Below the pieces are notes generated by a model. It worked only from the letters and a program-made list of their open reading frames with translations. It ran no database searches and was not told the origin of the DNA. A DNA stretch of 64,000 nucleotides from Planctomycetota bacterium (GTDB taxonomy: Bacteria; Planctomycetota; UBA1135). Below, piece after piece: positions 22,108 through 39,294 of the stretch. Location: positions 4,824 through 68,823 of the forward strand of contig JAJFFC010000007.1 in assembly GCA_021776795.1 (NCBI GenBank), in the 5' to 3' direction. Position 1 is the stretch's first letter, and the number at the start of each line of letters is the position of its first letter. A program made the translations under genes and the position numbers.

Positions 22108-23934
22108 ATGCGCCTCCTCTTTGCCGCCACTCTCGTCACCCTTGCCCTGACGCCCGCCGCTACTGCCACCGCCGCCCAATGGAGCGCAGATGCCGGCAGC
22201 AACACTGCCGTGGTCACACGCAGTGGCGATCAGGCTTTGCCCAAATCTGCTGCCACAAGTGATGGCGGGCGATGGGTCGCTTGGTTCGACAATGCTTCTG
22301 GCAATTACGATGTCTACGCCCAGCGCTATGACAGTCAGGGCAACGAACTGTTGGCGCCCGGCGGCCTGTTGGTGAGCGCAAACGCGCAGTCTTCGAGCTT
22401 GGTCAACTGGGATCTCATCGCCGACTCAGGCGATAACGCGGTCATCGTCTTTACTGACACCCGCACCGGTGGCGACCTCGATGTCTACGCCTATCGCATG
22501 TCTTCTAACGGCACCTTTCTCTGGGGGCCGAATGGCGTGGCGCTCTCCAGCAACGCCGATTTTGAAGCTGACCCGATGGTGGCCGAGGCAAACAACGGTG
22601 ACTTTGTGGTGGTGTGGAGCTTCCTCGGAGGAGTTTCCACCGTGCGCATGCAACGCCTCACTGCGGCCGGCACTCCAACCTTGGCCCTCGGTGGCCAGAA
22701 CATTGTGGTCGAGGCCGGCGCTTCCCCGGGTTTCCCGCGCGTGATCCCGAGCAGCGGCAACGATGTCATCGTGAGTTGGGTGCGCGACATCAACTTCTTC
22801 ACCAGCATCAAGCACTTGCGCGCGCAGGCATTTGATGCCGCGGGCGCGCCAACGTGGGCGCTTCCGGTAGAGGTCCACAACGCCTACAACCTGTCCTTTG
22901 CCTACAGTCCGCAACTTGCGTCGGATGGTGCAGGCGGTGCCATTTTGTGTTGGCACGCTAGTAATCCTGGGCGCGGCGGCTTGTTTGAGGCCTTTGTGCA
23001 GCACCTAAGCCCTGCTGGAAGTGAGCTCCTTCCGTCAGGCGGAACCATGCTGTCGAGCGCGGTGGGCATGAACCACCTCGATCCACAAGCAGCCTTCAAC
23101 CCCAGCACCGGCGACATCATTGCCTTCTGGAGCGAGAAGGATGGCGGTCAATCCCAAAGTGGTTGGTTCGCCCAGTCGGTGTCCTCGGCCGGCACCCTGA
23201 ACTGGGGCGCCAATGGCAAACAAATCCTGCCTGTTGACTCTGCCACCAAGTACCTGAGCTATGTCGAGGCACTCGGCGATGGCGCGGTGGGCGTGTTGGG
23301 TTGGGCTCCCAGCGGCGGCTTTGGTGCCGACGAAATCATCGCCACTCGCCTCGATGCCGCGGGCACCGAAGTGTGGGGTGGGCCGATCGCGCTCAAGACC
23401 ACACCGAGCAACCAGTCGACGCGGCTTGCGCTTTCGGTGGGCGGCGATGATGTCGCCGTGGTGTTCTGGGAAGACGCACGCAACGGCAACGATGACATTT
23501 ATGCGCAAAACATCCATGCCGATGGCAGCTTAGGCACCGACTATCTGCAACTCGACACCGCAGCCGTTTCGCTGTTCTTCGGCGGCACCGCCACCCTGTT
23601 CTTCGACGCCGGCTCCGCCCATGCCGGCGAGACTTATGTCGTGCTCGGCAGCAACACCGGAACCGTGCCCGGCATCAACGGCCGCGGGCTGCACCTGGAT
23701 TTGAATGCAGGCCCATACTTCCAGCTCACGCTCAACAACCCAACCTACCCTCTGTTTACGGGTTTCCGCGGGGTTTTGGATAGCCAAGGCCGGGCCAGCG
23801 CCAGCGTGGAGTTCCCAGCAGGCAGCAATCCCGCTCTCATCGGGAGTGTGCTCGGCCATGCGGTTGCTGTGCTTGATGCAGGCGGCCTCGGCGTACTTGC
23901 GAGTGAAACCGAAAGCTTCACGCTGCTGCCTTAG
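22108..23934 (+). CDS. secreted repeat protein of unknown function
   Basis: Signal peptide (MRLLFAATLVTLALTPAATATA) and internal degenerate repeats (…DVYAQR/DVYAYR/DIYAQN…). Shared C-terminal module at 23545-23931. Confidence 0.55.
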   Translation: MRLLFAATLVTLALTPAATATAAQWSADAGSNTAVVTRSGDQALPKSAATSDGGRWVAWFDNASGNYDVYAQRYDSQGNELLAPGGLLVSANAQSSSLVNWDLIADSGDNAVIVFTDTRTGGDLDVYAYRMSSNGTFLWGPNGVALSSNADFEADPMVAEANNGDFVVVWSFLGGVSTVRMQRLTAAGTPTLALGGQNIVVEAGASPGFPRVIPSSGNDVIVSWVRDINFFTSIKHLRAQAFDAAGAPTWALPVEVHNAYNLSFAYSPQLASDGAGGAILCWHASNPGRGGLFEAFVQHLSPAGSELLPSGGTMLSSAVGMNHLDPQAAFNPSTGDIIAFWSEKDGGQSQSGWFAQSVSSAGTLNWGANGKQILPVDSATKYLSYVEALGDGAVGVLGWAPSGGFGADEIIATRLDAAGTEVWGGPIALKTTPSNQSTRLALSVGGDDVAVVFWEDARNGNDDIYAQNIHADGSLGTDYLQLDTAAVSLFFGGTATLFFDAGSAHAGETYVVLGSNTGTVPGINGRGLHLDLNAGPYFQLTLNNPTYPLFTGFRGVLDSQGRASASVEFPAGSNPALIGSVLGHAVAVLDAGGLGVLASETESFTLLP

Positions 23935-25625
23935 TCTTCCGCAACATCCATATAGAAGTTGCGGTCGAGCTCGAGGGTCTTCAGCTTCGACTTCAAAGCA
24001 ATCACCGTCGGTTGTTCGGAAATCATCACGCGTTGCGCCTTGCCATTGAGGTGCAGCACCACGGGGGCTTTGAAGCCGGGCACGACGCGATCGAACCACA
24101 CCAACACCGATTTGTCCTTGGCCGCGTACTTCACTAATGGCAAATCCTTGGTGCGCAAGTACTGATCAAACACCAAGCTGAAATCAAAGCCAGAGACGCT
24201 GCTGATGTAAGCCTCGACCTCGGCCGTGGTCACGGTCTTGTGCCAGAACTCACTCTGAATCCCGCGTAAGACGGCGAGCCACTTGTCGTCGTCATTCAGC
24301 ATGTGGCGCATGGTGTGCAAAATGTTCGCACCCTTGGGGTACATATCGCTCGAGCCGCGGTTGTTGAGGCCGGTCTTACCAATGATCGGCTTGTCATTGT
24401 CAATGCCCTTGCGCAGACCCGCGTTGTAGATCTCGGCATCGTCCCTGCCGAAGTGATACTCGACATAAAGACTCTCCGCGTAAGTGCCGAAACCCTCGTG
24501 AATCCACATGTCGGCGGCGTCCTTCATCGACACGTTGTTGCCCCACCACTCGTGCGCGGCCTCATGAATGATGATGTAGTCGAACTTGAGCCCCACGCCG
24601 GTATCGCTCAAATCGCGCCCGCGGTAGCCATTCTTGAACTCGTTGCCATAAGTGACCGAACTCTGGTGCTCCATGCCGAGGTAAGGCACCACCACCAGCT
24701 TGTAACTGTCCTCATAGAAGGGGTACTTGCCGAACCAATGCTCAAAGGCCTCAATCGTCATGGGCAGCTGCTTGAATTGCTCCTTGGCTCGTTTCTCCTG
24801 GCCCTTGAGGACCCAGTACTCGAGATCGAGCTTGCCGTGCTCGCCTTGGTAGGTGTCCTGCCAGCTGACGTAGTTGCCGATGTTGAAGTTCACGCAGTAG
24901 TTGTTGATGGGTTGCGTGACTTTCCAGTGAAAGGTCGAGGTCTTGGCTTTCTTGTCTTTGCTCTGCTCGATCAATCGCCCGTTCGCCACGGCAGTGAGTC
25001 CCTTCGGCACCGTCACGCGGATGTCCACGCCCAGATCCGGTTCGTCCGCGCCATGATCCTTGTTCGGCCACCAGATACTCGCGCCGATGCCCTGGCAGGT
25101 GGTGGCAATGAAGGGTTTGCCGGAGTCATCCTTTTGCCAAGTGAGGCCGCCGCTCCAAGGTGGATTCTTGCTCTCGACGGGAACGCCTTCGTAATCAATC
25201 CGAATCTGGTCTTCCACACCAGCCGCGAGTTCCTCAGGGAACTGAATCCAATAGACCTTGCCCTCACGCTCAAAGCTCAGCTCGGTTTCGCCATGAGTCA
25301 CCCGCGTAATCGCAAGCGGCGGCTGCAGGTCAATCTGCATGCGCTCGCCTGGAGCCACCGTGCGGAAGGAAATGATGTTCGACCCCGCCAAGCTCTTGGT
25401 CTCCGGGAAGACCTGCAGCGAAAGGTCATAGTGCTGGAGGTCCCACCAAGACCGCTCCGGCCCGATGGACCCTCGCAGTTGATCCGCTCGCGTGAAGCCC
25501 TCGGGGATGGGGGCTTGTTGTGGGGCGGGGTCTTGGGGTGCGGTGTTGGCAAAGGCAGGCGTCGTCCAGAACGACGAGAACGACAAAACGGCAAGCAAAA
25601 ACGACCTGGAGGCGGAGCGGTGCAT
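23931..25625 (-). CDS. secreted M1-family zinc metallopeptidase (aminopeptidase N-like)
   Basis: HEAAHEWWGN (HExxH) followed by WIHEGFGTY (the downstream Glu ligand), plus an N-terminal signal peptide. Confidence 0.85.
   Translation of the reverse strand: MHRSASRSFLLAVLSFSSFWTTPAFANTAPQDPAPQQAPIPEGFTRADQLRGSIGPERSWWDLQHYDLSLQVFPETKSLAGSNIISFRTVAPGERMQIDLQPPLAITRVTHGETELSFEREGKVYWIQFPEELAAGVEDQIRIDYEGVPVESKNPPWSGGLTWQKDDSGKPFIATTCQGIGASIWWPNKDHGADEPDLGVDIRVTVPKGLTAVANGRLIEQSKDKKAKTSTFHWKVTQPINNYCVNFNIGNYVSWQDTYQGEHGKLDLEYWVLKGQEKRAKEQFKQLPMTIEAFEHWFGKYPFYEDSYKLVVVPYLGMEHQSSVTYGNEFKNGYRGRDLSDTGVGLKFDYIIIHEAAHEWWGNNVSMKDAADMWIHEGFGTYAESLYVEYHFGRDDAEIYNAGLRKGIDNDKPIIGKTGLNNRGSSDMYPKGANILHTMRHMLNDDDKWLAVLRGIQSEFWHKTVTTAEVEAYISSVSGFDFSLVFDQYLRTKDLPLVKYAAKDKSVLVWFDRVVPGFKAPVVLHLNGKAQRVMISEQPTVIALKSKLKTLELDRNFYMDVAED
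24576..25525. repeat. segment of the intact M1 peptidase gene that is duplicated at 28031-28878
   Basis: Long near-identical nucleotide runs are shared with 28031-28878 in the same orientation, e.g. gtagtcgaactt...cacgccggtatcgctcaaatcgcgcccgcggta. Confidence 0.75.
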
Positions 25626-25691: not shown

Positions 25692-27305
25692 TTAAGTAGG
25701 CATCTCGTTCAGCGGCACGACGGAAAGTTCTAAATCTGGGGAGAAGCTGGTCCGATGGTGCCTGTAATAGGGTAAATTTAACTTTTTCAGTTGCGTGCGG
25801 CAGTATTTCATCGCTTGGCGGCTGCCGGCGAGAAGGCAAAGCTGGCCGGGGGAGCAAAGAAGCCAGGCAACGGGAATTGCGGGCAGGGAAAGGTAAGAGG
25901 CATCTTCAGGGTCACGGTCAGGATCTGCGAGCATCCAAATGGCCGGGTCCACCTGGTGGAACACCGAGCTGCTGGTAAAAGCGGCCATGCAGCCGTCGGC
26001 CAAATCTTCGGTGCCTACCAGCAGACTAGAACCTGGTTCCCAGGGTGCGCCGCGAAAGGTGGCTAGTGGGAATTGCGGCATTTCTCCGGCGTCTTGGATC
26101 ATCGCCCAAAAGGCGAAGAATAGGGGTGCCGCTGGTTTGAGAAGTTGGACGCGGTCCTCCGGCTCTCCTCCCTGATGAAGACACGCTTGCTGCAAATGGT
26201 GCATTAGGTGCTGGTATTCCTCTTCCGCAAAGGGCCCGTGCAGAAACTCGCCGCGGAGGACTTGGTTCTTGCCGTTAGAGATAACCCGGGCAAAAAGGAG
26301 TTCCCCATCTCCGATGGATTCCCAGCCGGGCAGGGCTTCGACTTCCACCAGCTTTTTCTCGACAAGGCTAAACAACAGCAGGACACCGTCCTTGTCCGCC
26401 GCCTCGGTGAGATAGGGGGCCATCGGCTCGTGAAACATGGCCATGAGGAAGCGTTGTGCTCCCTCAGGAAGCGCGGGATGGGCGCGGATCAATTCCGGGA
26501 TAAAGGGTTTGTCGTGCTCTAGAATCATGTCGAAAGCAGCGTGATCGCGAATCAGCCCGCGAAATCCGCTCACTCGGTCAGCTACCGAGTCATTGGCTGC
26601 AGTCAACGCAGCGTCGCTGACACTCATGACCTCTTTCGCTGCCTCCAAGGAATCTCGCCACTGTGGCTGCAACAAGAAGGATTCCACCGTAGCCCAAGCA
26701 AGCTGCTCCTCGAGAGCGGACCAGGCAAGCGTGGTCCCGGAGTTTTGCTGAGCAAGGGCCCGCATGTCAGCTTGATGCTCCTCGAGATTGAAGGCATCGG
26801 GGGTCCACCCTGGCGCCATGCCAGCCTCTTCCGCCCATTCGAGCGCATCTGGATCCTTTGTCCGCAGTCGTTCCAGGAAGCGCTGGTAGCCATATATTCC
26901 TCCGCAATCCTCCGGCGGACAAGCGCGCCTGCCTGCGAGCAAACGTGGCAGCGCAGCGTAGTCCTCCTGCGTCAGCTCCACCCGTTTCTCCAGGCGCAGC
27001 ACATGCTCCCAGTCGTCGCCGAAGTCATAGTCGTAAGTCAAGGTGGACTGGACGGTGCGCAGCAGCTCGCCGATGCTGACGCTATCTTCCGGCTCCATGC
27101 CAGAAAGCGAATCCTGGTCGTTGCAGAAACGACGCTCGCCCTGGCGAAAGCCATGCAAGTGGCTATCGGTCCAGCCAAAGGCTCCCTGCAGATAGAAATG
27201 CAGCTGCGCCAAGGTAGTGTCAGCGGGTACCAGGATGCGGCGCCAAATCGGTGGCGAGGCGTCCTTCAAGTCGATGCGAATCTGCAGGGCCATCGTCTTC
27301 ATCAT
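25692..27305 (-). CDS. pRiA4b ORF-3-like (MM3350-like) domain protein with a ~400-aa C-terminal extension
   Basis: N-terminus LQIRIDLKDASPPIWRRILVPADTTLAQLHFYLQGAFGWTDSHLH...DYDFGDDWEH matches the plasmid pRiA4b ORF-3 family as I remember it. The remainder is unassigned. Confidence 0.65.
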   Translation of the reverse strand: MMKTMALQIRIDLKDASPPIWRRILVPADTTLAQLHFYLQGAFGWTDSHLHGFRQGERRFCNDQDSLSGMEPEDSVSIGELLRTVQSTLTYDYDFGDDWEHVLRLEKRVELTQEDYAALPRLLAGRRACPPEDCGGIYGYQRFLERLRTKDPDALEWAEEAGMAPGWTPDAFNLEEHQADMRALAQQNSGTTLAWSALEEQLAWATVESFLLQPQWRDSLEAAKEVMSVSDAALTAANDSVADRVSGFRGLIRDHAAFDMILEHDKPFIPELIRAHPALPEGAQRFLMAMFHEPMAPYLTEAADKDGVLLLFSLVEKKLVEVEALPGWESIGDGELLFARVISNGKNQVLRGEFLHGPFAEEEYQHLMHHLQQACLHQGGEPEDRVQLLKPAAPLFFAFWAMIQDAGEMPQFPLATFRGAPWEPGSSLLVGTEDLADGCMAAFTSSSVFHQVDPAIWMLADPDRDPEDASYLSLPAIPVAWLLCSPGQLCLLAGSRQAMKYCRTQLKKLNLPYYRHHRTSFSPDLELSVVPLNEMPT

Positions 27306-28030: not shown

Positions 28031-28980
28031 GTAGTCGAACTTCATCCCACGCCGGTATCGCTCAAATCGCGCCCGCGGTAACCGTTCTTGAACTCGTTGC
28101 CATAAGTGACCGAACTCTGGTGCTCCATGCCGAGATAAGGCACCACCACCAGCTTGAAACTGTCCTCATAGAAGGGGTACTTGCCGAACCAATGCTCAAA
28201 GGCCTCAATCGTCATGGGCAGCTGCTGGAACTGCTCCTTGGCTTGCTTCTCCTGGCCCTTGAGGACCCAGTATTCGAGATCGAGCTTGCCGTGCTCGCCT
28301 TTGTAGGTGTCCGCCCAACTCACATAGTTGCCGATGTTGACGTTCACGCAGTAGTTGCTGATCGGCTTGGTGACTTTCCAGTGAAAGGTCGAGGTCTTGG
28401 CTTTCTTGTCTTTGGTTTCCTCGATCAGGCGCCCGTTCGCCACTGCAGTGAGTCCTTTCGGCACGGTCACCCTGATATCCACACCGCGGTCCGGTTCATC
28501 TGCACCATGGAGCGGCGGATTCTTGCTCTCGACGGGGACGCCTTCGTAATCAATCCGAATCTGATCTTCCACACCAGCCGCGAGTTCTTCAGGGAACTGA
28601 ATCCAGTACACCTTGCCCTCGCGCTCAAAGCTCAGCTCGGTTTCGCCATGAGTCACCCGCGTAATCGCAAGCGGCGGCTGCAAGTCAATCTGCATGCGCT
28701 TCCCAGCAGCCACAGTGCGGAAGGAAATGATGTTCGACCCCGCCAAGCTCTTCTTCTCCGGGAAGACCTGCACCGAAAGGTCATAGTGCTGCAAGTCCCA
28801 CCACGACCGCTCCGGCCCGATGGAGCCCCGAAGCTGATCCGCCCGCGTGAAGCCCTCAGGGATAGGGGCTTGTTGGGGGGCGAGGGCTGCGGCGGAGGCA
28901 GGAGCCGCAAATGCCAGAACAGTGAGAAGGACCGAGGTGTTGGCGAGGCGGTGCATGGGGTACTGAGGATAGGGGGACAA
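28031..28980 (-). pseudogene. truncated paralog of the M1 metallopeptidase (lacks the HExxH catalytic half)
   Basis: By eye most residues are identical to residues ~36-345 of the 23931-25625 product, with scattered substitutions. There is an in-frame loss of ~33 residues (WSGGLTWQ...WWPNKD) and a 1-nt deletion giving a stop right after DTGVG. Homology ends after the ...KFDY codons, before the zinc motif. Confidence 0.75.
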
Positions 28981-29090
28981 GTGAATTCATGCCATCGGGA
29001 AGGCAGTCCCTACCTTCAGATTCAGATAACTCCGTCGAAATGAGTAACCGGGTTAAGGATCGTTGAAAATTTACTGGGTGGCGACAGATT

Positions 29091-31076
29091 GTGTGTCACG
29101 CTATCCTTGACAAGTGCCTTGTCGGCAAACCGTTGAGCCAAAATATCATGCAGCTACCAGACTGGATTTTAAAGAAACCAAATCGAGGTGAGAAGCTTCG
29201 GGAGGCATCCCAAGGCGCCCATTTTGCGAGCGGAAGCCTTTCCAATATTGGTGAAGCCCTCATTCGAGAATCTATTCAAAATTCGCTCGATGCGATTGAG
29301 GACGTAACAAAGCCAGTCGAGGTCTCTTTCATGCTGTCCGATGGCTCCTCTATTTCTGATGAAAGCATGGCGTATTGGTTTGACGGCCTGAAACCTCATG
29401 TTGAGGCCGCTGGAAGTGAAATTCTCCTATCCAATTCCCTAGACTGTGAGAATGAGAACTTCAAGTTCCTTAGTATTGAAGACTTCAATACTAAGGGATT
29501 GCAGGGCAACCACCATATTGATTATGTCGACGATCAAAATGAGCGGCCAGAGGACCGCAATTGGTTTTGGTACTTTTGGAGAACCGAGGGGCGATCGCCA
29601 AAGCGGGGAGAAGGGCGAGGCAAATGGGGGTTGGGCAAGTTTGTCTATCCCGCGAGTAGCAGTGTGCGGGCATTTTTCGGGCTAACCATTTCGAAGAATG
29701 AAAATCCACGTTTAATGGGCCAAACTGTATTATGCGCTCACAGGATCAATGGCGAGCAATACACATGCGATGGAGATTGGGGGATTAATGATGGAGGATT
29801 TGTTATCCCTGTCACGACTACACAAACCATTAGGAAGTTTTCTGAGGATTTTTCTCTGTCCAGGACATCAGAAAATGGCTTTTCGATAGTAATACCCTGG
29901 GTCTCAGGAGACCTTGATTTCGAAGGGATTTGCAAGCACGTAATTGCAAATTTTCTACAAGCAATCGCTGCGAATGAACTTAGGGTCTCAGTGAAGGAAG
30001 GCCAAAGCAACTGTGAGATTAACCAAGATACAATCGAACTAATTCTGGGAGAAATGGATGACGTTGAATTTAAAGAGAAATGGCTTGGATACTATTATCT
30101 TTTTCTTGAGGGAGAAACGAGGAAAGAGTCTGACTTTTACCATCTCCAACCTCCGGAGGCAGGGACCGCACCGAGATGGAATAGAATGTCTATGAAGCCG
30201 GAGAATGTTGAGGAGTTAAAGGAGAAAATCCATGAGGGCGAGGAAATTCTTGCCTTTCGTGTTCCAATCGCAGTCCAAAGATTATCGGGTCAAGCAGACG
30301 AGCCTTCATGTTTTTCAGTCATTTTGCAGCGAGCAACAACTAGGGCGAAGGGTGGGGTGGTGTTCCTTCGCGACTCTCTCAGGATTAGCGAAGAACGATC
30401 CCGTCCGAAAGTTACTGAGTTTAGGGCAATCGTGTTCATTTCTAGCGGCCCGCTGTCAGTGATGCTGAGTCACTGTGAGGGGCCTGCACACCTTCACTGG
30501 GACCATCACATGCCAGGAATAAAGTCTGGGCGCTACAAAAACGTTAAAAGCTGCTTGGATTTTGTAAGGCAATCTGTGAATGGAATCATTGCCCTAATAA
30601 GGAATACGAGTGATTCTCCAGACTTCGCAACTTTGTCCGGATTTTTTCCATGGAATGAAGCGGCGGGAGAGAATGCGCCCGGTGGAAGCGGGGGAAAAGG
30701 GACAAAGAAAAAGAAGAGGTCACCAAAGCCTCCGAAGCTTGAAGGCGGAATAGGAGTTCAGATTCGGATTGAAAGATACCAAGGTGGATTCAAAGTCCTT
30801 CCCGGCCCAAACTTTGACAGTTCAACGGTAAAGATCCGAATTCGTGTTGCATATGATACCTCGAGGGGAAACCCATTCAGTAAGTTCTCAGAGTTTGACT
30901 TTAATCTAAGAAAAATGGCCTGCAAATATTTTGGTTTAACGAGAGAGTTTGGAAAACTTAATGTCGTCACCCTTACAGATCTTTCTGATGACTTTTCATT
31001 CGCACTTGATGGATTTGATCGAAATCGCGACTTGGTGGTTCAAGCGCGAATGGAGAAGACGGAGAGGGAAGAATAA
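29091..31076 (+). CDS. GHKL (Bergerat-fold, HATPase_c-like) ATPase domain protein, otherwise uncharacterised: cassette gene A
   Basis: N-box ALIRESIQNSLDA (29268-29291), a G1-like SIEDFNTKGLQG and a G2-like GRGKWGLGKFVY. A Gly/Lys linker GGSGGKGTKKKKRSPKPPK precedes a ~115-aa C-terminal domain. The tracked start is GTG 29091; ATG 29148 (MQLPDW...) is a plausible alternative. Confidence 0.6.
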   Translation: MCHAILDKCLVGKPLSQNIMQLPDWILKKPNRGEKLREASQGAHFASGSLSNIGEALIRESIQNSLDAIEDVTKPVEVSFMLSDGSSISDESMAYWFDGLKPHVEAAGSEILLSNSLDCENENFKFLSIEDFNTKGLQGNHHIDYVDDQNERPEDRNWFWYFWRTEGRSPKRGEGRGKWGLGKFVYPASSSVRAFFGLTISKNENPRLMGQTVLCAHRINGEQYTCDGDWGINDGGFVIPVTTTQTIRKFSEDFSLSRTSENGFSIVIPWVSGDLDFEGICKHVIANFLQAIAANELRVSVKEGQSNCEINQDTIELILGEMDDVEFKEKWLGYYYLFLEGETRKESDFYHLQPPEAGTAPRWNRMSMKPENVEELKEKIHEGEEILAFRVPIAVQRLSGQADEPSCFSVILQRATTRAKGGVVFLRDSLRISEERSRPKVTEFRAIVFISSGPLSVMLSHCEGPAHLHWDHHMPGIKSGRYKNVKSCLDFVRQSVNGIIALIRNTSDSPDFATLSGFFPWNEAAGENAPGGSGGKGTKKKKRSPKPPKLEGGIGVQIRIERYQGGFKVLPGPNFDSSTVKIRIRVAYDTSRGNPFSKFSEFDFNLRKMACKYFGLTREFGKLNVVTLTDLSDDFSFALDGFDRNRDLVVQARMEKTEREE

Positions 31077-31829
31077 ATGGTAATCAGAAAGCTAAATTTT
31101 ACCGACAGGAAAAGGATAACTCGCAAACACATTTCCATCCGGATCTACAAGGAGGGGGCACATTGGATGGTTGCCTTCTTGCTGGACTTAAAGGAATTCT
31201 CTTTTCCTATGGGATCTCAAGTTTGCATTGATGTGTTTAGTCGTGGGTTTACTGCGCGCTTTAATTTGGGCACTATTGAAAATGCAGTAGGTGAATTGCC
31301 TTATGAACTTGGCGATGCTTATGATGCGAACCAGGTTACATATTTCGTTGTTGTAGTCCTTCGAGAAGATGGAAACAGCGAGTTCTTGGGAATCTCTCAA
31401 AAGATCTACCCAATCGCAATTGGCGAGGAAAGTGGGGCAGAATCTTTTGTGGGTGTCCACTCTTCAGATGACCTTGGTGAAGAAATTTGGTCTCTTGATT
31501 TGAATAACCTTTCTGGGCGGCCGGTAATTTATGTTAACAGTGACATTTCAAATGACCCACAGGGATGGCTGCGCGACCCGCGCAATGCTGGACTAATCCT
31601 TCCTGCAGTCTTTGAATCGCTTTGCAGGCATACGTTTTCGGAGGGAGAAGAAATCCAGGAAGACGATGGCGGATGGCAAGCTGGGTTGTTGGCCAATCTA
31701 AAAAGGTTATTACCAAATCGGGATTGGGACAGCGCAGGCGAGGGGGAGTGTTGGGAAAATATTCAGGATGCAAAGAGGGAGTTCGTTCGGCAAAATAAGT
31801 TTGCGACAAATTATTTGCAAGGCGGTTAA
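31077..31829 (+). CDS. hypothetical protein: cassette gene B
   Basis: 250-aa ORF whose ATG immediately follows the stop of gene A (TAAATG at 31074-31079). Same AT-rich composition as its neighbours. No recognisable motif. Confidence 0.6.
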   Translation: MVIRKLNFTDRKRITRKHISIRIYKEGAHWMVAFLLDLKEFSFPMGSQVCIDVFSRGFTARFNLGTIENAVGELPYELGDAYDANQVTYFVVVVLREDGNSEFLGISQKIYPIAIGEESGAESFVGVHSSDDLGEEIWSLDLNNLSGRPVIYVNSDISNDPQGWLRDPRNAGLILPAVFESLCRHTFSEGEEIQEDDGGWQAGLLANLKRLLPNRDWDSAGEGECWENIQDAKREFVRQNKFATNYLQGG

Positions 31830-31832
31830 GCA

Positions 31833-32549
31833 ATGATTCAAGTTTGTAAACTTACCCCTGACGGGTTCGCAAGATACGAGGCATTCCTTGCCAGGCTTAG
31901 CTCCGAACCTAATCTACAGCCCCCAGCGAACTTGATTGCCCCCAGTCGATTTTGCTTAGATTTACTGGCGGGCACGCCCCCACCAATTAATAAGAAATTC
32001 GATTCTAGGTTCGACTTGGGCCGTTTCTTGGTTGATTGGATTCCAAGCGAGTATCGGCGCGACAAAGGTGTATGGGCATGGTTGACCTTGTGCTTATTCG
32101 AAACTGTTTGTCCGCTCAAGTCCAATGGGACTAGGCCAACGGGGCAGACCGCGCGCTTGTTGCCGATTTTCGATGACTATCGAAGGCACTACAGGCACCT
32201 TCTTGCTGGCCCTTACCTAGTTTGCTTGGCCCAGAAGGAGACTCCCGAGTCAGCATTTGGCCTACTTTGTTTGCCGCCAGATAAGGCTGGGGATCTATAT
32301 GAACAGGTTGCGAGTAGGCAAGAACGGCTCGTAAATACTGGGCTATTAAATTTGTTAACGAAGCTATATGTCGATAGCTCAACAAAACGCCTGAAGCGCG
32401 GCGTACAAGGAAAGAAAGGAGGAGCCGCCCGCCGCATGGAGGCTTTTCTGTCGCAGCTTGAGCTTACCCATGACATTAAGAGTTTGACCCAAGAGGATCT
32501 CTGGGCGATGCTTCCGGGGGAGTTTGATCGTTTCAAAGAAGAGGGTTAA
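31833..32549 (+). CDS. hypothetical protein: cassette gene C
   Basis: 238-aa ORF starting 3 nt after the gene B stop. Basic C-terminal segment KRLKRGVQGKKGGAARR. No recognisable motif. Confidence 0.6.
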   Translation: MIQVCKLTPDGFARYEAFLARLSSEPNLQPPANLIAPSRFCLDLLAGTPPPINKKFDSRFDLGRFLVDWIPSEYRRDKGVWAWLTLCLFETVCPLKSNGTRPTGQTARLLPIFDDYRRHYRHLLAGPYLVCLAQKETPESAFGLLCLPPDKAGDLYEQVASRQERLVNTGLLNLLTKLYVDSSTKRLKRGVQGKKGGAARRMEAFLSQLELTHDIKSLTQEDLWAMLPGEFDRFKEEG

Positions 32550-32727
32550 GCCAACGACCGATTGTTCTTGCTTTTTCAAGGTTAGGCTAGGTAGGTGCAT
32601 TGAATAAAATCAATCGCCCTTGCCGGCTTGTCAGAAATAGATCCAGGTAAGTAGTTATTTCTAGTCCTCTTAGTTATGATCTTTATTAGCAAGCAATGCT
32701 GTTTGCGCTGACTTCATAGGAACTGTT

Positions 32728-34665
32728 GTGCCACAGAAAATTTTCGACGCGAGAGACGTAAGGTTTGCTCAAGGAGTGCTCTTCCAGCGTGACTCAATCC
32801 TTAGAATCCCAGAATACCAAAGGCCCTATGAGTGGCGAAAAAATGTCGAGGCGGCAACTTTGTGGGAAGACCTCACTACGCGCGAGGGCGAAAGACTGTT
32901 TGTTGGTTGCATCATCCGATTGGAGGGCGAAAAAGTCGAAAGTGAGAAAAATGGGGTAATGTATCATTGGAATGTAATCGAGCTGGTGGACGGTCAGCAA
33001 AGAGCTATGACGTCTTATATTTTACTCGGTGCCCTTAGGGATACGATGGCTCTTAAATCTCGAAACCTTCCTAGCGAAGATGCAGAGAGCGTCCTGAATG
33101 ATATCGTTCATGAAATTCAGCAACAGTTTTTTCAGTTTAAGAACAGAAAGAAATCCAATAAAGAGGACAATCCATTCTGGGGTTATCGTTTTGAAGCAAG
33201 GAAGTCACTGAAAACCTTTTTTGAGAAGAACATTTTGGACTTGGTTCCGCTTGATTCATGGAATGAAATTAAGTGGAATGCTAAGTGGGTGACAGATGCA
33301 AACAAGAACGAGGCAAGAACAATTAGGAGTAATTATGATTTTTTTCGAGGGAAGTTTATGGAGCTTCCGCTCAAAACGAGCGATGACTTTTATGCCCTTC
33401 GCGATGAGTTTGCTGAACACTTTGAAGCGCTTGATTCCGTCGCGATTGATTTGATTTCCCAAAAGCATAAGTACTCAGTATTTGAATCTATCAATTCGAA
33501 GGGTAAAGGTCTAGACACCTCTGATAAGGTAAAGAGTTGTTTGCTAAATCGTGTGAAATCCCAAACGGACAAGAATCGAATATATTCCTGTTGGGATGAG
33601 ATTCAGGCAATATCAAATCGCCTTCGGTCCTTTAATCCAAAGTCCGTGTTGCGCTATCATTGGCTCGCGAATCATGGGCATTGCACAATGACCAGCCTGC
33701 TGCCATCTATCTCAAAAAAGGTCAAGACTAGTGATGAAGCTATTGAGTTTGCTGTTGATTGTGTCGCCAGTGTAAAATTGCTGCACCTAATTCAAAGGGG
33801 AAGTCTTTCAGACCTTCGAGAGCACTTTGCAGGGGGAAAAAGCGCCCAATATCCCAAAACGATCCGGTCGCTATTGAAATTCCGAAATTATGTTCTCGCT
33901 GGAGGAACAATGCAGCCAATTCAGGTGTTGCTAGCTCTATTTCCAAAACAATCTCTTGTGCTAATGGATGACAAGGAGGTTTCTGAATTAGTCGAGATCT
34001 TTACGAAGTTTTGCTTTGCTTATTCTTCAGTCATGGATGGAAAGGGAAGCACGATGGAGAAGGCTTATGCAGCTAGTGCAAAAGCGCTAGCAAGCGCTCA
34101 TTCGGGCAATAGTTTGAAGGAATCGCGGAAAGCTGCTCTTGCATCAACAGAAGGTCTTCAAATTGACTTGATTAAGGCGTGGCCTTCAGAGGCATCGCTT
34201 CGAGAAAAAATCGAAAAATGGAAATATCTTAAAAGCAAGAATAAGAATAACTACAGGATTCGAACAGCTCTCCTCATGCTAGAAGAACATACTGACCCAG
34301 GCGGATTTTCAGAAGTTGAATTTCAAAACGTTAGTGTTGAACACGTTTCCCCTCAGAATCCGGATTTCACTGACAAGCATTGGGACAAGAAGGATGTCCT
34401 GGGGCATGAGAGAATTAAGAAATCTCGATATATTAACGCACTGGGTAACCTTACCCTACTTGGAACTTCTTTGAATAGCTCAATAAAGGCTCTGCCCCCC
34501 AGGAAAAAGTTTGAGCACCAAGCATTTATCAGTTCAAAGTACTCCCTTAACAAAAAGATTCGCGAGCAGATCTTAGGCGGAACAAACTGGAATTTAGCAT
34601 TTGTCAAGAGAAGAGATAAAAGCGTGCGCGATGATCTTGCGAAAATATTGCAGCCCCCTAAATGA
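32728..34665 (+). CDS. DUF262 (ParB-like NTPase/nuclease) + DUF1524 (His-Me finger) protein, GmrSD-like type IV restriction candidate
   Basis: DUF262 motifs RIPEYQRPYEW and LVDGQQR. C-terminal DUF1524-like SVEHVSPQNP...NALGNLTLLGTSLNSS. GTG start. Confidence 0.8.
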   Translation: MPQKIFDARDVRFAQGVLFQRDSILRIPEYQRPYEWRKNVEAATLWEDLTTREGERLFVGCIIRLEGEKVESEKNGVMYHWNVIELVDGQQRAMTSYILLGALRDTMALKSRNLPSEDAESVLNDIVHEIQQQFFQFKNRKKSNKEDNPFWGYRFEARKSLKTFFEKNILDLVPLDSWNEIKWNAKWVTDANKNEARTIRSNYDFFRGKFMELPLKTSDDFYALRDEFAEHFEALDSVAIDLISQKHKYSVFESINSKGKGLDTSDKVKSCLLNRVKSQTDKNRIYSCWDEIQAISNRLRSFNPKSVLRYHWLANHGHCTMTSLLPSISKKVKTSDEAIEFAVDCVASVKLLHLIQRGSLSDLREHFAGGKSAQYPKTIRSLLKFRNYVLAGGTMQPIQVLLALFPKQSLVLMDDKEVSELVEIFTKFCFAYSSVMDGKGSTMEKAYAASAKALASAHSGNSLKESRKAALASTEGLQIDLIKAWPSEASLREKIEKWKYLKSKNKNNYRIRTALLMLEEHTDPGGFSEVEFQNVSVEHVSPQNPDFTDKHWDKKDVLGHERIKKSRYINALGNLTLLGTSLNSSIKALPPRKKFEHQAFISSKYSLNKKIREQILGGTNWNLAFVKRRDKSVRDDLAKILQPPK

Positions 34666-36238
34666 GGTTAGACGCTAAAGCCTCGGCTATTTGAGTAGCG
34701 AGAAAGGGCGGAACAGCATTCCCAATTTGAATGTACTGGGCAGTCCGCGGACCGCAAAAGAAGTAGTCGTCAGGAAAAGTTTGCAGCCTAGCGGCTTCTC
34801 TGGGAGTCAGAGTTCTGCATTGATTAGGGTCAGGATGAATAAAGCCATGTCCGTCTCTTGAGAGATGGCTGGTAATCGTGGTAGCGGGTGAGCCCTTGAC
34901 TTGAACTCTGAACCGGTCATTAAAAAGATTTCCCTCTTTTACAGAGTCTTTGAAGTTTTGGTGATTCGGCCAGAGTATCCGCGGATAGTCGCGGGATTTT
35001 GGTGTCCTTGAATGAGCTTGCGCAAAGCATGAAGCGAACAAGTATCGGGCAAAATCCTCTGGCATGTGAGCCCTCCCCTCGTGATTGCACCATCCATCAA
35101 GGTGCTTGGAGGAAAGCCAGGAAGACAATTCGGTATGATTTTTTGCAATCCAATCAACACGGCGACTCCTGCCCCTGGGGATATATCTTCCGCCACTTCC
35201 ACTTCGAACGGTGCCACGCCCCAAGTTGCCTAGTGCGCGGTTCATTTGATTCCGAGTTTGTGGGTCAACCGCGCCCAGGATCCTTTCACTAACCTGATCC
35301 TTTACGCAATGTTGCCACTCTTCCCTTGTGCCAATGCCCCTGCTATTCCATGGGTGAATGTTAGGAATATCTTTTAAAACTTCCCACGCATTCACCTGAG
35401 GCCGAGTGCTAATCGATAAATCTTCCGTTCCCCTTAGTTGGTCCTCTCTGATGCCGATCACAATAACGCGGTGCCTGGACTGTGGAACACCATACCTTTC
35501 CGCCCGTACAATAAAATCCTTCGCGCTCCAAGGTTGCCGGCCAAACAAATCCCCTTCTGCTGCTTGAGGGGCAATCGGGAAAAGGTGGTACTTGGGTCTA
35601 TTCTTTACCTTCGATGCCCTCCCCGGATCTTGGAGGTCTCGTAGGATTTGGTCAAAAATTCCGTTCTTGGCGATTTTTGAAGAAAGGATGCCCTTTACAT
35701 TTTCCATCACAAAGGCGATGGGTTCAACGTTTGCAAGAATTCTCAGGTACTCTCGATAAAGAAAGTGTCTATTGTCATCTTCAGGGCGGTAATCCTTTGT
35801 TCCCTTATTTCGGCTTCTTCCAGCAAGAGAGTAGGCTTGGCATGGTGGACCTCCAATAAGGATTGCTTTCCCGCGGAGGCCTAATTCTCCAATTTTTGCA
35901 TCAACCCTTCGACGAGTGTTTGGACCCAATTCAAGGCAAAGCGATTCTTCTTTTGCTCTTTCCCATTCGGCAGGATGCTTCCTTAAAAAAAAGTCTTCCC
36001 GCTCGGCAGATGGTGCGCCGTGGTGAAGGTGATCAAAATAGTGTCTTGAAGGTTTTCCGAAAGGGAACTGCCGATAAAAACTTCTCAGGGTTAGCGTTTC
36101 ATGAGCATATCTATCCATTTCAATGGAGAGTGCAATTTTGAACGCCTTTCCGGACCGTGCTTTTGCAAAACCCTCTCCCAGTCCTCCTGGGCCTGCAAAT
36201 AGGTCAATGATCGGGATTGGTGTCTTGGGTAGTGACAT
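34658..36238 (-). CDS. DNA (cytosine-5)-methyltransferase
   Basis: Motif I DLFAGPGGLGEGF, motif IV GGPPCQAYS, motif VI FVMENVKG, motif X QIGNAVPP. It has a long variable region (526 aa total). Confidence 0.9.
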   Translation of the reverse strand: MSLPKTPIPIIDLFAGPGGLGEGFAKARSGKAFKIALSIEMDRYAHETLTLRSFYRQFPFGKPSRHYFDHLHHGAPSAEREDFFLRKHPAEWERAKEESLCLELGPNTRRRVDAKIGELGLRGKAILIGGPPCQAYSLAGRSRNKGTKDYRPEDDNRHFLYREYLRILANVEPIAFVMENVKGILSSKIAKNGIFDQILRDLQDPGRASKVKNRPKYHLFPIAPQAAEGDLFGRQPWSAKDFIVRAERYGVPQSRHRVIVIGIREDQLRGTEDLSISTRPQVNAWEVLKDIPNIHPWNSRGIGTREEWQHCVKDQVSERILGAVDPQTRNQMNRALGNLGRGTVRSGSGGRYIPRGRSRRVDWIAKNHTELSSWLSSKHLDGWCNHEGRAHMPEDFARYLFASCFAQAHSRTPKSRDYPRILWPNHQNFKDSVKEGNLFNDRFRVQVKGSPATTITSHLSRDGHGFIHPDPNQCRTLTPREAARLQTFPDDYFFCGPRTAQYIQIGNAVPPFLATQIAEALASNLI

Positions 36239-36372
36239 GCAGGAGTAAATTTATTCTACACCAGAGTGCAGGGCAACAAAATAATTGCAGACCGAAAACG
36301 AAATCACTTGTGGCATGTCCCCGATTTTCGTACAGCGACCAGGGGCTCGATTAACGACTATTCACTTCACCG

Positions 36373-37464
36373 CTATTGGCGGCTAGCATTGTAGCCCGCA
36401 AACCGCTCCAGCCGATAGGCCAGGGCGTCGGCAGCAAGCCCCATCTGAGGAATAACAGCTTTGGAACGCAGCGACTGCTCTAAACCCTGACAAGTTTCCT
36501 CTGGGAAATGATGAAGGATATTGCGGCCATCGATCGCGAGCATGTTTTCATCCATTGCTCGGTGATGATTGCGGCAAAGGCAGAGTCCGTTGTCCACGGC
36601 GAGTCCGCGTTCTTCAAAACCCTTCACCGGAAGCAGGTGGGCGCCCTCGAGAATCTGGGGGACTCCAATCGGGCATACCGCGCACATGCCACCGAAGTTC
36701 GCGAGGACGCGGCTTCTCCATGCTTGCTGCCCTTGGCGATGCTTCGCCGTGGTGTTGAGGAACTTCATGCTGGTGTCGCCCTGAGCAAGATGCTGAGTCA
36801 AATCCCAGCCGGTAGAAAGGTCGCCGGTCCCGTGCTTCCAAACGAGGTCCGCCTCCGCAACAATCAGGCCCATTTGTTCCAATGTGCAGGCGGCGGAAAG
36901 GAGTTCTGCATAAGGAAGCTGGGGAAAGCTCTGCTGCAGTTGCTGTGCGGAAATCGGGGTTTCTTGCGCGTCCCACCAGCCCCAAATATCTTCCAGGCGA
37001 TCGATTTCTTGGTGCCGCGCGTTTTCGCCCAAATCGCTTTCTAAACACAGGGTAAGGGCCTTCGACGGTTCATCCGCCCTAGTCTTCAACCACTGGAGTA
37101 TTTCCCCGCGCAGCCAAACCCTGGCTTGCGGGTCGGCAAGAACCTCCTGGAAGACTGGCTCCACTTCCAGTCGGTCGTCCATCCGTTGCCAGATTTGGTC
37201 TGGCATGGAGCCAGGCCTCACCGCCAAGTACTGTCCGGGTAAACGCCAGCGGCCAGGCCCCTCCAAGGCGTGATGCCGACTGAGCAGCAAGTCAAAGGCC
37301 TCCGAGAGTGACTGCCTGATCGGAATGGCCTCCGCGGAAGCGCGATTGGCATCGATGGCATCTAGGATCACCAGGATGAGGCTGACTTTGTACGTGGGCT
37401 TCGAGACCTTCATCCCACGCAAAGCTTCTTGCCATGCACGCCGCGATTGGTCGAGGGAGGTCAT
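36373..37464 (-). CDS. HNH endonuclease (HNH_2-type) with a ~230-aa uncharacterised N-terminal region
   Basis: C-terminal RQGQQAWRSRVLANFGGMCAVCPI...LEGAHLLPVK...NGLCLCRNHHRAMD. Confidence 0.75.
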   Translation of the reverse strand: MTSLDQSRRAWQEALRGMKVSKPTYKVSLILVILDAIDANRASAEAIPIRQSLSEAFDLLLSRHHALEGPGRWRLPGQYLAVRPGSMPDQIWQRMDDRLEVEPVFQEVLADPQARVWLRGEILQWLKTRADEPSKALTLCLESDLGENARHQEIDRLEDIWGWWDAQETPISAQQLQQSFPQLPYAELLSAACTLEQMGLIVAEADLVWKHGTGDLSTGWDLTQHLAQGDTSMKFLNTTAKHRQGQQAWRSRVLANFGGMCAVCPIGVPQILEGAHLLPVKGFEERGLAVDNGLCLCRNHHRAMDENMLAIDGRNILHHFPEETCQGLEQSLRSKAVIPQMGLAADALAYRLERFAGYNASRQ

Positions 37465-37878
37465 TTAGTCTTTACTCCAATAGTCTGCTTTAGCGGGAAT
37501 CACCCAACGAACGCCACCGCGCGGGTCAGCAACGTCGCCCGTGTATCTAGGCACAATGTGGATGTGCGCGTGCAGGACGGTTTGTCCGGCGGCGGTCCCG
37601 TCATTCAGGCCAATGTTGAATCCGTCCGGTTGGTATCGCTTTTGCACATCCGCGCGGACTTCGGCTACGAGACTCCACATAGCAAGCTGGTCTTCTTCGG
37701 AAAGGTCGAAGAAGCAGGCAACGTGCTGCCGTGGGACAATCAGGGAGTGTCCAGGTGAAATCGGAAAGGAGTCCAATAGAGCAACGGCCGAAGCATTTTC
37801 AGCCAGGACCTCAGTGGCGGGAGAGCAGAAGGGGCAAGTCAAGATATTGCTGGAGACCCCATGGTCGCCTTGGTTCAC
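37465..37878 (-). CDS. HIT (histidine triad) family nucleotide hydrolase/transferase
   Basis: Histidine triad HAHIHIVPR, and PISPGHSLIVPRQH. Its stop abuts the HNH start (TAAATG on the minus strand at 37462-37467). Confidence 0.85.
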   Translation of the reverse strand: MNQGDHGVSSNILTCPFCSPATEVLAENASAVALLDSFPISPGHSLIVPRQHVACFFDLSEEDQLAMWSLVAEVRADVQKRYQPDGFNIGLNDGTAAGQTVLHAHIHIVPRYTGDVADPRGGVRWVIPAKADYWSKD

Positions 37879-38085: not shown

Positions 38086-39294
38086 TTGAATTCACCAATT
38101 TCTAAGCTAAACTCCAGCATGGTCAGAAGAATCGCCCAGGACCGGGTGGAGGCGGCGGCAGCGTCCTTCCCGGTGGTCACGCTCACTGGGCCGCGCCAGT
38201 CCGGCAAGACCACTCTCTGTCGCGCGGCTTTCCCGGACAAGGCTTACGTCAACCTAGAAAGTCCGGATCACCGGGCCTTTGCCTTGGAGGATCCAAGAGG
38301 CTTCCTTGCCCAGTTCCCACAGGGTGCCATCCTGGACGAGATCCAGCGCACGCCGGAGCTGCCTTCCTATCTGCAGGGGCTGGTGGACGCGGAACCGGTC
38401 AAGGGTCGCTGGATTCTCACCGGCTCTCAAAACCTCGGCCTGATGGATTCCGTCAGCCAGTCTCTCGCCGGGCGGACTGCCGTCTTGCACCTCATGCCCT
38501 TGAGCCTGGACGAGTTGATGGCCTTTCCGAATGCCCCCAACACCCTCGACGAGGTCCTTTTCTGCGGCGGATATCCGCGCATCTTTGACCAGAACATTCC
38601 GGCATCGGATTGGTTGGCTTCTTATGTGGCCACCTACCTCGAGCGCGATGTGCGGCAGATTTCTCAGGTCGGGGATTTGACCGTGTTTCAAAAGTTCCTC
38701 GGCCTCTGTGCTGGCCGCACTGGGCAGCAATTGAACTACAGCAATCTCGCGGCGGATTGTGGAGTGTCGCAACCCACGGCCAAGCACTGGCTGTCCATCC
38801 TCGAGGCGAGCTTTCTGGTTTATCTCCAACCGAGCTGGTCGGGGAATCATCGCAAGCGCTTGGTGAAAATGCCCAAAATGCACTTCATGGATGTGGGGCT
38901 GGCCTGCTGGCTGCTTGGCATCCGCGCACCCGAGCACCTATCGCTACACCCCTTGCGCGGGGCACTGTTCGCATCGTGGGTGTTGTCGGAAATTCGCAAG
39001 CACCGTCTGCACCGCGGCCAGCCCGGGACTCTACATTACTATCGGGATCACGGCGGGGGCGAGGCCGATCTTCTGCTGGAGACCCCCCAAGGAATGATCT
39101 TGGCCGAGGTGAAAGCGGGGCAAACGATTTCTTCCGAGGCATGGAAAGGCCTATCGCGGGTGGCGCAAGGATTCGCGAATGGGCAGGGCTGCCAGCAGAT
39201 GGTGGTGTATGGAGGAGAGGAGGAACAGGCGCGTAAAGATGTCCTGGTCCTGCCGTGGCGAGCGGTGCAAGATATCGCTTGGTGCGGGGAGTAA
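38086..39294 (+). CDS. AAA-family ATPase with DUF4143 (AAA_14/DUF4143 type)
   Basis: Walker A LTGPRQSGKTTL, with the family-typical length and C-terminal region. Confidence 0.8.
   Translation: MNSPISKLNSSMVRRIAQDRVEAAAASFPVVTLTGPRQSGKTTLCRAAFPDKAYVNLESPDHRAFALEDPRGFLAQFPQGAILDEIQRTPELPSYLQGLVDAEPVKGRWILTGSQNLGLMDSVSQSLAGRTAVLHLMPLSLDELMAFPNAPNTLDEVLFCGGYPRIFDQNIPASDWLASYVATYLERDVRQISQVGDLTVFQKFLGLCAGRTGQQLNYSNLAADCGVSQPTAKHWLSILEASFLVYLQPSWSGNHRKRLVKMPKMHFMDVGLACWLLGIRAPEHLSLHPLRGALFASWVLSEIRKHRLHRGQPGTLHYYRDHGGGEADLLLETPQGMILAEVKAGQTISSEAWKGLSRVAQGFANGQGCQQMVVYGGEEEQARKDVLVLPWRAVQDIAWCGE

Follow-up and report, generated by a model that had tools for sequence, protein, structure and literature searches.

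Results

We analyzed a 64,000-nucleotide stretch of DNA from a Planctomycetota bacterium (GTDB lineage UBA1135; GenBank assembly GCA_021776795.1, contig JAJFFC010000007.1, positions 4,824 to 68,823 of the forward strand), referred to below as the window, and in particular a cassette of three closely packed genes, designated A, B and C, that lies near a gene for a C5-cytosine DNA methyltransferase (Dcm). Our preferred interpretation, to which we assign a probability of about 0.55, is that A-B-C forms the restriction half of an ATP-dependent, restriction-modification-like defense system based on 5-methylcytosine (m5C), with Dcm as its modification half. An earlier reading of the same letters, made without database searches (the sequence-only reading), had singled out the trio as an uncharacterized operon encoding a GHKL ATPase and two partners in a defense island.

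A-B-C is a conserved operon

Genes A (29148..31076, 642 amino acids), B (31077..31829, 250 amino acids) and C (31833..32549, 238 amino acids) all lie on the forward strand. The table of open reading frames (ORFs) and direct reading of the junctions agreed with the gaps of 0 and 3 nt that had been described: the TAA stop of gene A is directly followed by the ATG of gene B (31074-31079), and the TAA that ends gene B at 31829 is separated by 'gca' from the ATG of gene C at 31833. The longest ORF of gene A, of 661 amino acids, begins with a GTG at 29091 (29091..31076, forward strand), and this was the start originally chosen. It is probably too early, because a database protein identical to A has 642 amino acids and begins with MQLPDW, corresponding to the ATG at 29148, and because the alignment of family A homologues, in which W6 is nearly invariant, also begins there. 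Residues of A are therefore numbered from ATG 29148, and the numbers given in the sequence-only reading are higher by 19. The cassette is flanked, as had been stated, by intergenic regions of more than 100 nt: upstream, the preceding ORF lies on the opposite strand and extends to 28980, leaving 110 nt to the GTG or 167 nt to the ATG, and downstream there is a spacer of 178 nt between the stop of gene C (32549) and the next ORF (32728). Scans for promoters and terminators performed no better on this DNA than on shuffled sequence. We also observed that the three genes share one reading frame and are separated only by a TAA, and by a TAA plus one codon. This is probably a coincidence, although read-through of the stop codons would give fusion proteins.

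A scan with one genome per species identified family A in at least 520 species genomes. We fetched 80 of the A loci and called their genes by a simple longest-ORF heuristic; these loci come from several classes of Proteobacteria, from the Verrucomicrobiota, Planctomycetota, Nitrospirota, Acidobacteriota, Bacteroidota and Cyanobacteria, and from one Methanoregula archaeon. A homologue of B directly followed A in 70 of the 80 loci, and a homologue of C followed B in 61-62 of them. Of 69 A-B junctions, 65 were overlapping or no longer than 30 nt, and 28 of these overlapped by 4 nt; of 61 B-C junctions, 59 were overlapping or no longer than 30 nt, and 21 of these overlapped by 4 nt. The recurrence of B and C after A places all three genes far beyond chance ORFs, and A-B-C is thus one conserved operon, as had been supposed from the window alone. 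The overlapping or tight junctions indicate translational coupling and a stoichiometric complex. Among the 10 loci that lacked B, five were contigs ending soon after A and four belonged to a planctomycete clade in which A stands alone.

A clade of A homologues without B or C was seen in planctomycete metagenome-assembled genomes (MAGs; loci L026, L032, L047, L059, L071, L076 and L077). In five of these (L032, L047, L059, L071 and L077, not L026 or L076), A adjoins a divergent xylose-isomerase-like TIM-barrel gene (Pfam AP_endonuc_2), and these solitary A proteins may have been domesticated for a role outside defense. In a gammaproteobacterial MAG, a gene immediately downstream of A-B-C (L020:13382-16312) encodes a protein of 977 amino acids, one region of which is like the ATPase of Hsp70/DnaK (PDB phmmer E 6e-12), and two more genes follow on the same strand.

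The cassette and Dcm are linked in both directions

Clustering and Pfam annotation of the genes around A in the 80 loci revealed three recurrent neighbor families: Dcm (32/80), Vsr (22/80) and EcoRII-C (10/80). Dcm was the only family present in more than 30% of the loci, and every family other than these three was present in less than 10%. In the 48 complete loci, defined by at least 3 kb on both sides, Dcm lay within 3 kb in 28 and within 500 bp in 21, and an adjacent Dcm was often on the same strand as A-B-C, from which 18-28 bp separated it. The cassette is linked to Dcm genes of at least three different clades; the clade of the window Dcm (phmmer E 1e-112 to 1e-131) accounts for 13 of the 80 loci. 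A neighbor-joining tree of A contained both Dcm-linked and Dcm-less clades, and the protein nearest to the window A in this tree, from locus L065, has a Dcm of the same clade with a Vsr upstream.

The Dcm of the window (34658..36238, reverse strand, 526 amino acids) matches Pfam DNA_methylase with E 2e-48, and its best PADLOC match is DrmMII (4e-84). No gene or remnant of Vsr or EcoRII-C was found in the window. For a reciprocal test we fetched 80 metagenome loci with this Dcm as the query, at 41-47% identity. Vsr adjoined Dcm in 65 of these loci, and among the 45 long ones (at least 9 kb) a GHKL-type cassette lay beside Dcm in 39-40, or about 87%. In 31 of the 45 this was a four-gene set encoding proteins of approximately 500, 900, 335 and 690 amino acids, which, judged from homologues on RefSeq plasmids and from motifs, include a MORC-type ATP-binding protein, a PD-(D/E)XK motif protein and an AIPR family protein. 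A-B-C itself was found in two (L146 and L161) and an unclustered A-like trio in one (L106), while no cassette was seen in five. These counts indicate that the Dcm-Vsr clade of the window is almost always the methylase of a GHKL cassette, and that A-B-C is one interchangeable cassette at this position. The linkage between A-B-C and Dcm is specific and bidirectional, and the window Dcm is probably the cognate modification gene of A-B-C. The methylase that the sequence-only reading had noted as context is indeed present, and it is more than context, since Dcm is the one recurrent partner of the cassette.

Protein A is predicted to be a GHKL ATPase with a transducer domain

All conservation calls, and an AlphaFold2 model of A, were based on an alignment of 21 family A members. 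Three GHKL motifs were located in it, all encoded on the forward strand. Motif I, the N-box, is E41-x3-N45-x2-D48 within ALIRESIQNSLDA (29268..29291), where R40, E41, Q44, N45 and D48 are invariant; E41, N45 and D48 correspond to the residues numbered E60, N64 and D67 originally, and the motif is common to family A and the PDC-M33A family described below. Motif II, a variant of the G1 box, is E111-D112-F-N-T115-x-G117-L118-x-G120 (29478..29507), with E111, T115, G117, L118 and G120 invariant and D112 and F113 at least 90% conserved. Motif III, the G2 box, is G158-x-W160-G161-x-G163-K164 (29619..29639), in which every listed residue is invariant; its equivalent in the PDC-M33A family is GGSFGFGK. 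R408 is likewise invariant. An ExxxH motif, E444-x-P446-x-H448-x2-W451 (30477..30500, forward strand), lies late in the transducer domain; its residues are invariant in family A (consensus ENPAHTxW), the PDC-M33A family has ENxAHDEW, and the motif may be a metal, substrate or catalytic site.

The AlphaFold2 model of A had a predicted local distance difference test (pLDDT) score of 80.8 and a predicted template modeling (pTM) score of 0.70. Its best Foldseek match in the PDB was topoisomerase VI-B (1mx0, E 6e-10), followed by full-length Hsp90 (approximately 1e-8), GyrB/ParE (4e-7) and the ATPase module of SMCHD1 (1e-5), in alignments of more than 500 columns spanning the GHKL and transducer domains. 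On account of these matches A is predicted to be a GHKL (Bergerat-fold) ATPase with a transducer domain, so that the original assignment, made from motifs, now has support at the level of the fold as well as from residues that are invariant or nearly so. The matches to topoisomerase VI-B and Hsp90 further suggest an S5 fold for the transducer. Sequence and profile searches of Pfam, NCBIfam and the PDB gave no match to A, including none to Pfam HATPase_c_3.

Beyond the transducer, A contains a basic linker rich in Gly, Lys and Pro (residues 488-536, 30609..30755, forward strand), which is predicted to be disordered, with pLDDT below 50 at residues 488-496 and 500-536; in the alignment its length varies but it stays rich in Lys and Pro across the family. 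The linker leads to a C-terminal domain (residues 539-636, 30762..31055, forward strand) that is modeled as eight beta strands with pLDDT of approximately 80-90 and no helices, and that appears to be specific to the family. Its conserved residues are G547, F548, A568, G574, D584, F585, N605, G622, F623 and R627.

The structural neighbors resemble A in combining a Bergerat ATP-binding fold with a transducer or middle domain. However, topoisomerase VI-B, Hsp90 and SMCHD1 share only 8-12% identity with A and give no match at the sequence level, and A differs from them in that it lacks an SMC hinge and the C-terminal dimerization domain of Hsp90 and has neither a Top6A-like nor a Toprim partner. 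In comparison with these neighbors, the C-terminal beta domain and the ExxxH motif of A are specific to its family. Neither a MutL C-terminal dimerization/endonuclease domain nor a MutL-type transducer was detected in A in the Pfam and PDB sequence searches, and MutL was not among the 50 Foldseek matches listed.

Proteins B and C

Protein B has an invariant N-terminal motif, N7-x-T9-x-R11, in its family. The C-terminal half of B is rich in Trp throughout the family and, judged from the sequence of the window copy, is acidic there. A phmmer search with B returned 766 cluster representatives at E of 1e-3 or below; the best 150 matches were 182-268 amino acids long, mostly around 250, and included no fusions. 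Searches of Pfam, NCBIfam, PADLOC and the PDB gave no match to B and detected no relative beyond its own family, and a comparison of B with A found no common domain. The possibility that B is Toprim-like was rejected, since its alignment has no DxD motif.

The AlphaFold2 model of protein C is all-helical and of high confidence (pLDDT 92.8, pTM 0.89), and the family has a conserved basic Gly/Lys loop. Foldseek found no structural relative of the model; its best matches had E 6.6 against the PDB and 5.2 against BFVD, a database of viral predicted structures. Sequence and profile searches of Pfam, NCBIfam and the PDB gave no significant match to C. DUF6339 (PF19866) matched weakly in the C family (E of approximately 0.05, in only 2 of 42 members), and three C homologues carry a precomputed PF19866 match, so that C may be a very remote member of DUF6339. 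We rejected C as a HEPN-like Rx4-6H protein, as the position of the arginine is inconsistent in the alignment and Foldseek gave no HEPN match. No reader domain (SRA, SBD, YTH or similar) was detected in A, B or C. The Pfam, NCBIfam and PDB searches were also consistent with the original impression that the trio shows no visible nuclease, helicase, TIR, SIR2 or transmembrane signature.

A-B-C appears to be a divergent sister of PDC-M33

In a comparison with PADLOC-DB 2.0.0 (library of 2023), A matched the PDC-M33A model with E 1e-30, over only model positions 32-306 of 627, and this model was matched by all 21 family A members scanned. An hhalign comparison of family A with the genuine PDC-M33A family was highly significant (probability 100, E 2.3e-39, residues 5-503) and its alignment takes in the ENxAH..W motif; the window A's C-terminal domain does not align with PDC-M33A. 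B did not match the PADLOC model PDC-M33B even at E 10, and none of 38 family members did so at E of 1 or below; similarly, none of 36 members of the C family matched PDC-M33C. The PDC-M33B profile had no match in the PDB.

Loci of the PDC-M33 type were recovered among the weakest hits of the search with A (P0030-P0033), where a protein of 653-665 amino acids is followed by one of 276-286 and then by a DUF6339 protein of 243-443. One of them, L081, scored 9e-93 over the full length of PDC-M33A, 2e-52 with PDC-M33B and 6e-26 with PDC-M33C. The layout is like that of A-B-C: three abutting genes on the same strand, encoding a GHKL protein of about 650 amino acids, a protein of about 280 and a DUF6339 protein of about 250, compared with 642, 250 and 238 in the window. 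This gene order was seen in L081, L084, L086, L087 and the plasmid pS127. Both kinds of cassette also occur beside restriction-modification genes, and one PDC-M33-type trio adjoins an HpaII restriction enzyme. Because A is homologous, the layout is the same and B and C could not be matched to PDC-M33B or PDC-M33C, A-B-C appears to be a divergent sister of PDC-M33, with the same motor and arrangement and with partners that have either diverged past recognition or been replaced. PADLOC-DB 2.0.0 would probably not call the window locus as PDC-M33, since none of its models matches B or C.

The trio on pS127 (L088), a conjugative plasmid of a dairy strain of Lactococcus lactis (NZ_CP061323.1, 106588-110213), encodes proteins of 655 and 286 amino acids and a 'DUF6339 family protein', and lies between an AlwI-family restriction enzyme and abiGI/abiGII. 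The same match was found on five other Lactococcus plasmids, which places a sister system in a culturable and tractable host. In L084 (4245-5573), the PDC-M33C/DUF6339 protein is 443 amino acids long, with a C-terminal extension that weakly resembles the phosphorothioate-sensing SBD domain of 8h0l (E 0.019) and includes a PHKPLLLL-type motif; this hints that the protein in the C position may contact DNA. B gave only a weak collinear match with the partner of a third A-like family (E 0.025, probability 2%), and PDC-M33B gave no significant match with that partner.

The distant relatives of A on Lactococcus plasmids also led us to AbiR, a three-gene phage-resistance module on the Lactococcus plasmid pKR223 that depends on the neighboring LlaKR2I methylase and is toxic without it (PMC13064643). 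A-B-C is not AbiR, whose sigma70-like, ParB-like and restriction-endonuclease/Snf2-helicase proteins include no GHKL member (PMC13064643), and the likeness is one of function only, in that methylase-dependent behavior is what we predict for A-B-C and Dcm.

A literature search on PDC-M33, DUF6339 and GHKL proteins with Dcm and Vsr found a single relevant paper, in which Iyer, Abhiman and Aravind predicted in 2008 that a GHKL ATPase would occur beside Dcm and Vsr in restriction-modification operons (PMC2292703). The paraMORC proteins of that study resemble A in that an S5-type or transducer domain comes after their GHKL domain, and they resemble A-B-C in having neighborhoods with cytosine methylases and Vsr. 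The hallmark of paraMORC2 is an ExxxH motif late in the S5-type or transducer domain (PMC2292703), the place at which A has its invariant E444-x3-H448 in the modeled transducer. paraMORC2 was described mainly among cyanobacteria and Gram-positives, together with superfamily II helicases and restriction-endonuclease-fold nucleases (PMC2292703), whereas the partners of A are two small proteins with no known fold; the likeness to paraMORC2 was drawn from the published description. The non-homologous displacement of MORC in similar operons that the paper proposed was directly seen in our reciprocal Dcm loci. There, the four-gene MORC-type set shares with A-B-C a GHKL ATPase and the same Dcm-Vsr clade, and it occupies the same position far more often (31/45, compared with 2-3/45 for A-B-C). 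Its GHKL protein, of about 500 amino acids with DDGKGM and GRFGLGLK motifs, is missed by the family A profile, and A-B-C, in contrast to this set, contains no recognizable nuclease or helicase.

The two principal claims to novelty in the sequence-only reading therefore need to be narrowed. The trio does have a place among the known GHKL architectures, as A is homologous to PDC-M33A and the theme of GHKL with Dcm and Vsr was predicted in 2008. To call it uncharacterized was fair, but it is not a previously undescribed kind of system, and the PADLOC comparison proposed at the time was positive for A and negative for B and C. GHKL cassettes linked to restriction-modification genes were already known, as was PDC-M33, both as computational predictions, and A-B-C is not categorically new. 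The family falls outside Pfam and NCBIfam, and its C protein, judged from the predicted structure, resembles neither any solved structure nor any predicted viral one.

Proposed mechanism and alternatives

In the mechanism that we propose, Dcm would mark the host's own DNA. A would dimerize on ATP in the manner of GHKL clamps, and its basic linker and beta-rich C-terminal domain would hold it on DNA. B and C, which would be made stoichiometrically through translational coupling, would supply recognition and effector activity against DNA that carries no Dcm mark; the effector could alternatively reside in B, in C or at the ExxxH site of A. The GmrSD-family enzyme encoded downstream would be an independent type IV enzyme travelling in the same mobile island. 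The elements that we infer here are a defense role, dependence on methylation, clamp behavior and the subunit that would bear the effector.

Several findings weigh against this interpretation. A methyltransferase is present, as in classical type II restriction-modification, but no nuclease or other effector domain was detectable in A, B or C in Pfam, NCBIfam and the PDB, or with Foldseek for C, and for this reason we infer the role in restriction from position alone. About 40% of the complete loci have no Dcm within 10 kb, and whole clades of A are Dcm-less (a Fuerstiella/planctomycete clade and a delta/betaproteobacterial clade), which indicates that the module can exist without a linked methylase. 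In 10 loci, the Dcm beside the cassette is part of what seems to be a complete EcoRII-type restriction-modification system, which weakens the case for A-B-C as a required restriction partner. The Dcm gene of the window is convergent with A-B-C, with the GmrSD gene between them, so that they are not co-transcribed. Nor does the kinship with PDC-M33 extend to the partners: B gave no significant match with genuine PDC-M33B proteins in hhalign or hmmsearch, and C gave none with genuine PDC-M33C proteins in hhalign, although a weak hmmsearch alignment was collinear. PDC-M33 is, moreover, a computational candidate only, of which we found no mention in the literature searched.

The EcoRII-type loci (L022, L025, L028, L033, L052, L053, L057, L062, L066 and one more) contain Dcm and an EcoRII-C endonuclease, plus Vsr in about half. 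Here A-B-C either uses the methylation of that system or the two are stacked defenses.

In an alternative reading, A-B-C would be an autonomous defense or abortive-infection module that senses an infection cue directly and needs no methylation, with Dcm-Vsr and EcoRII as common island neighbors or hitch-hikers rather than partners in function. In its favor, the Dcm-less clades of A retain B and C, the neighbors in Dcm-less loci are heterogeneous, several PDC-M33 relatives have no methylase among their called genes, and the window Dcm is on the opposite strand. We nevertheless regard this alternative as rather doubtful, given that Dcm alone exceeds 30% of loci while families beyond Dcm, Vsr and EcoRII-C stay below 10%, that adjacent Dcm genes are arranged like members of an operon, that several distinct Dcm clades were recruited independently, and that the window Dcm clade is tied to GHKL cassettes in most long loci. 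A variant of our proposal that we think unlikely is that A-B-C is nuclease-free and acts by silencing similar to that of MORC and SMCHD1, the GHKL clamp being directed by B and C to compact DNA without the Dcm mark or to trap it topologically. Replication or transcription of unmarked DNA would then be blocked rather than the DNA being cut, and the clamp would read cytosine methylation in the sense opposite to that of eukaryotic MORCs.

Three other explanations have less in their favor. The SBD-like extension on the L084 PDC-M33C protein, together with the type IV GmrSD in the island of the window, might suggest that A-B-C is a type IV-like reader in which C (perhaps related to DUF6339) or B recognizes a foreign modification, Dcm serving another purpose such as counter-defense or protection from a neighboring enzyme. 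This is improbable: the resemblance to SBD is marginal and concerns a distant relative outside the family, none of the three proteins has a detectable reader domain, and an m5C reader of type IV would turn against its own cell beside an active Dcm. The presence of Vsr in 22 of the 80 loci raises the question of a DNA-repair accessory, a MutL-like helper of Vsr in very-short-patch repair of the T:G mismatches that arise by deamination of Dcm-made 5-methylcytosine; a functional interaction of E. coli MutL with Vsr has been reported (PMC2292703). Such a role is very improbable, since most loci, including that of the window, have no Vsr, A has no MutL C-terminal domain and MutL is missing from its 50 listed Foldseek matches, the cassette shares a mobile low-GC block with a type IV enzyme, and its distribution across phyla is patchy, as expected of mobile defense genes. 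We give hardly any credence to a single four-gene system in which GmrSD is the nuclease effector of the GHKL clamp, a joint action that had been considered in the sequence-only reading. The GmrSD gene (32728..34665, forward strand; Pfam GmrSD_N 8.5e-25 and GmrSD_C 7.8e-14, PADLOC HEC-06 3e-44) does follow gene C after only 178 nt, on the same strand and within the same low-GC block. However, a GmrSD relative was present within 10 kb in 0 of the 80 A-centered loci, which rules it out as a conserved fourth gene and places it outside the conserved cassette; enzymes of this family are described as acting alone or with a paralogue (GmrSD, TgvAB, GrwAB; PMC12137116); and the G+C content of the gene is below that of A-B-C, which fits a separate insertion.

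The low-GC island and neighboring genes

A G+C profile delimited a low-GC block (29000..36400) whose only genes are A, B, C, GmrSD and Dcm. The G+C content is 0.40-0.52 over approximately 29.0-36.4 kb compared with 0.55-0.62 in the flanks, in line with the AT-rich composition noted earlier, and it is lowest in the GmrSD gene (0.40-0.45). From its composition and content, the block appears to be a horizontally acquired, defense-type island, which agrees with the setting that had been proposed for the trio, and the low G+C common to A, B, C and Dcm indicates their joint acquisition. There are no tRNA genes in the window and no att-like repeat bounds the island.

On the left side of the island, an M1-peptidase-like gene (23931-25625, reverse strand) has its 5′ half duplicated at 94-95% identity (24592-25458 compared with 28046-28813). 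The truncated copy (28042-28980, reverse strand) lies at the left edge of the low-GC island, and a PRiA4_ORF3-like gene (25692-27305) is located between the two copies. The duplication looks like the scar of a segmental duplication or insertion beside the island. On the right side, an HNH_2 endonuclease gene (36373-37464, reverse strand) directly abuts a HIT-family gene (37465-37878, reverse strand). In PADLOC these matched the HNH model (E 4e-12) and the ThsC-like HIT model (E 2e-12), respectively, and a comparison of the HNH_2 protein with the PDB gave nothing useful. The pair, which lies immediately beyond the low-GC block, may be a separate two-gene defense module.

A gene 5.5 kb downstream of the cassette (38086-39294, forward strand) encodes a P-loop ATPase with a GPRQxGKTT motif. 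This ATPase shares 28% identity (E 2e-23) with a protein found near A-B-C in three other loci (L025:13655-14869, L035 and L068), which is a weak recurrence. Further along, an ORF at 39873-41237 (reverse strand) contains a HPFGDGNGRTAR motif, read by eye from the translation, which we take to be typical of Fic/DOC AMPylating enzymes.

Significance

The current annotation of this family is blank, as Pfam and NCBIfam contain nothing for it and PADLOC matches only half of one protein. In practical terms, tools for the annotation of defense systems should add the A-B-C family and treat Dcm as part of the system. If A-B-C is the restriction half of a system in which Dcm provides the mark, a family present in hundreds of species and more than 10 phyla would represent a type of methylation-linked immunity, built on a clamp similar to Hsp90 and topoisomerase VI-B and on two proteins without known relatives. 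Such a system would also have a bearing on the origin of the methylation-linked MORC and SMCHD1 silencing machines of eukaryotes.

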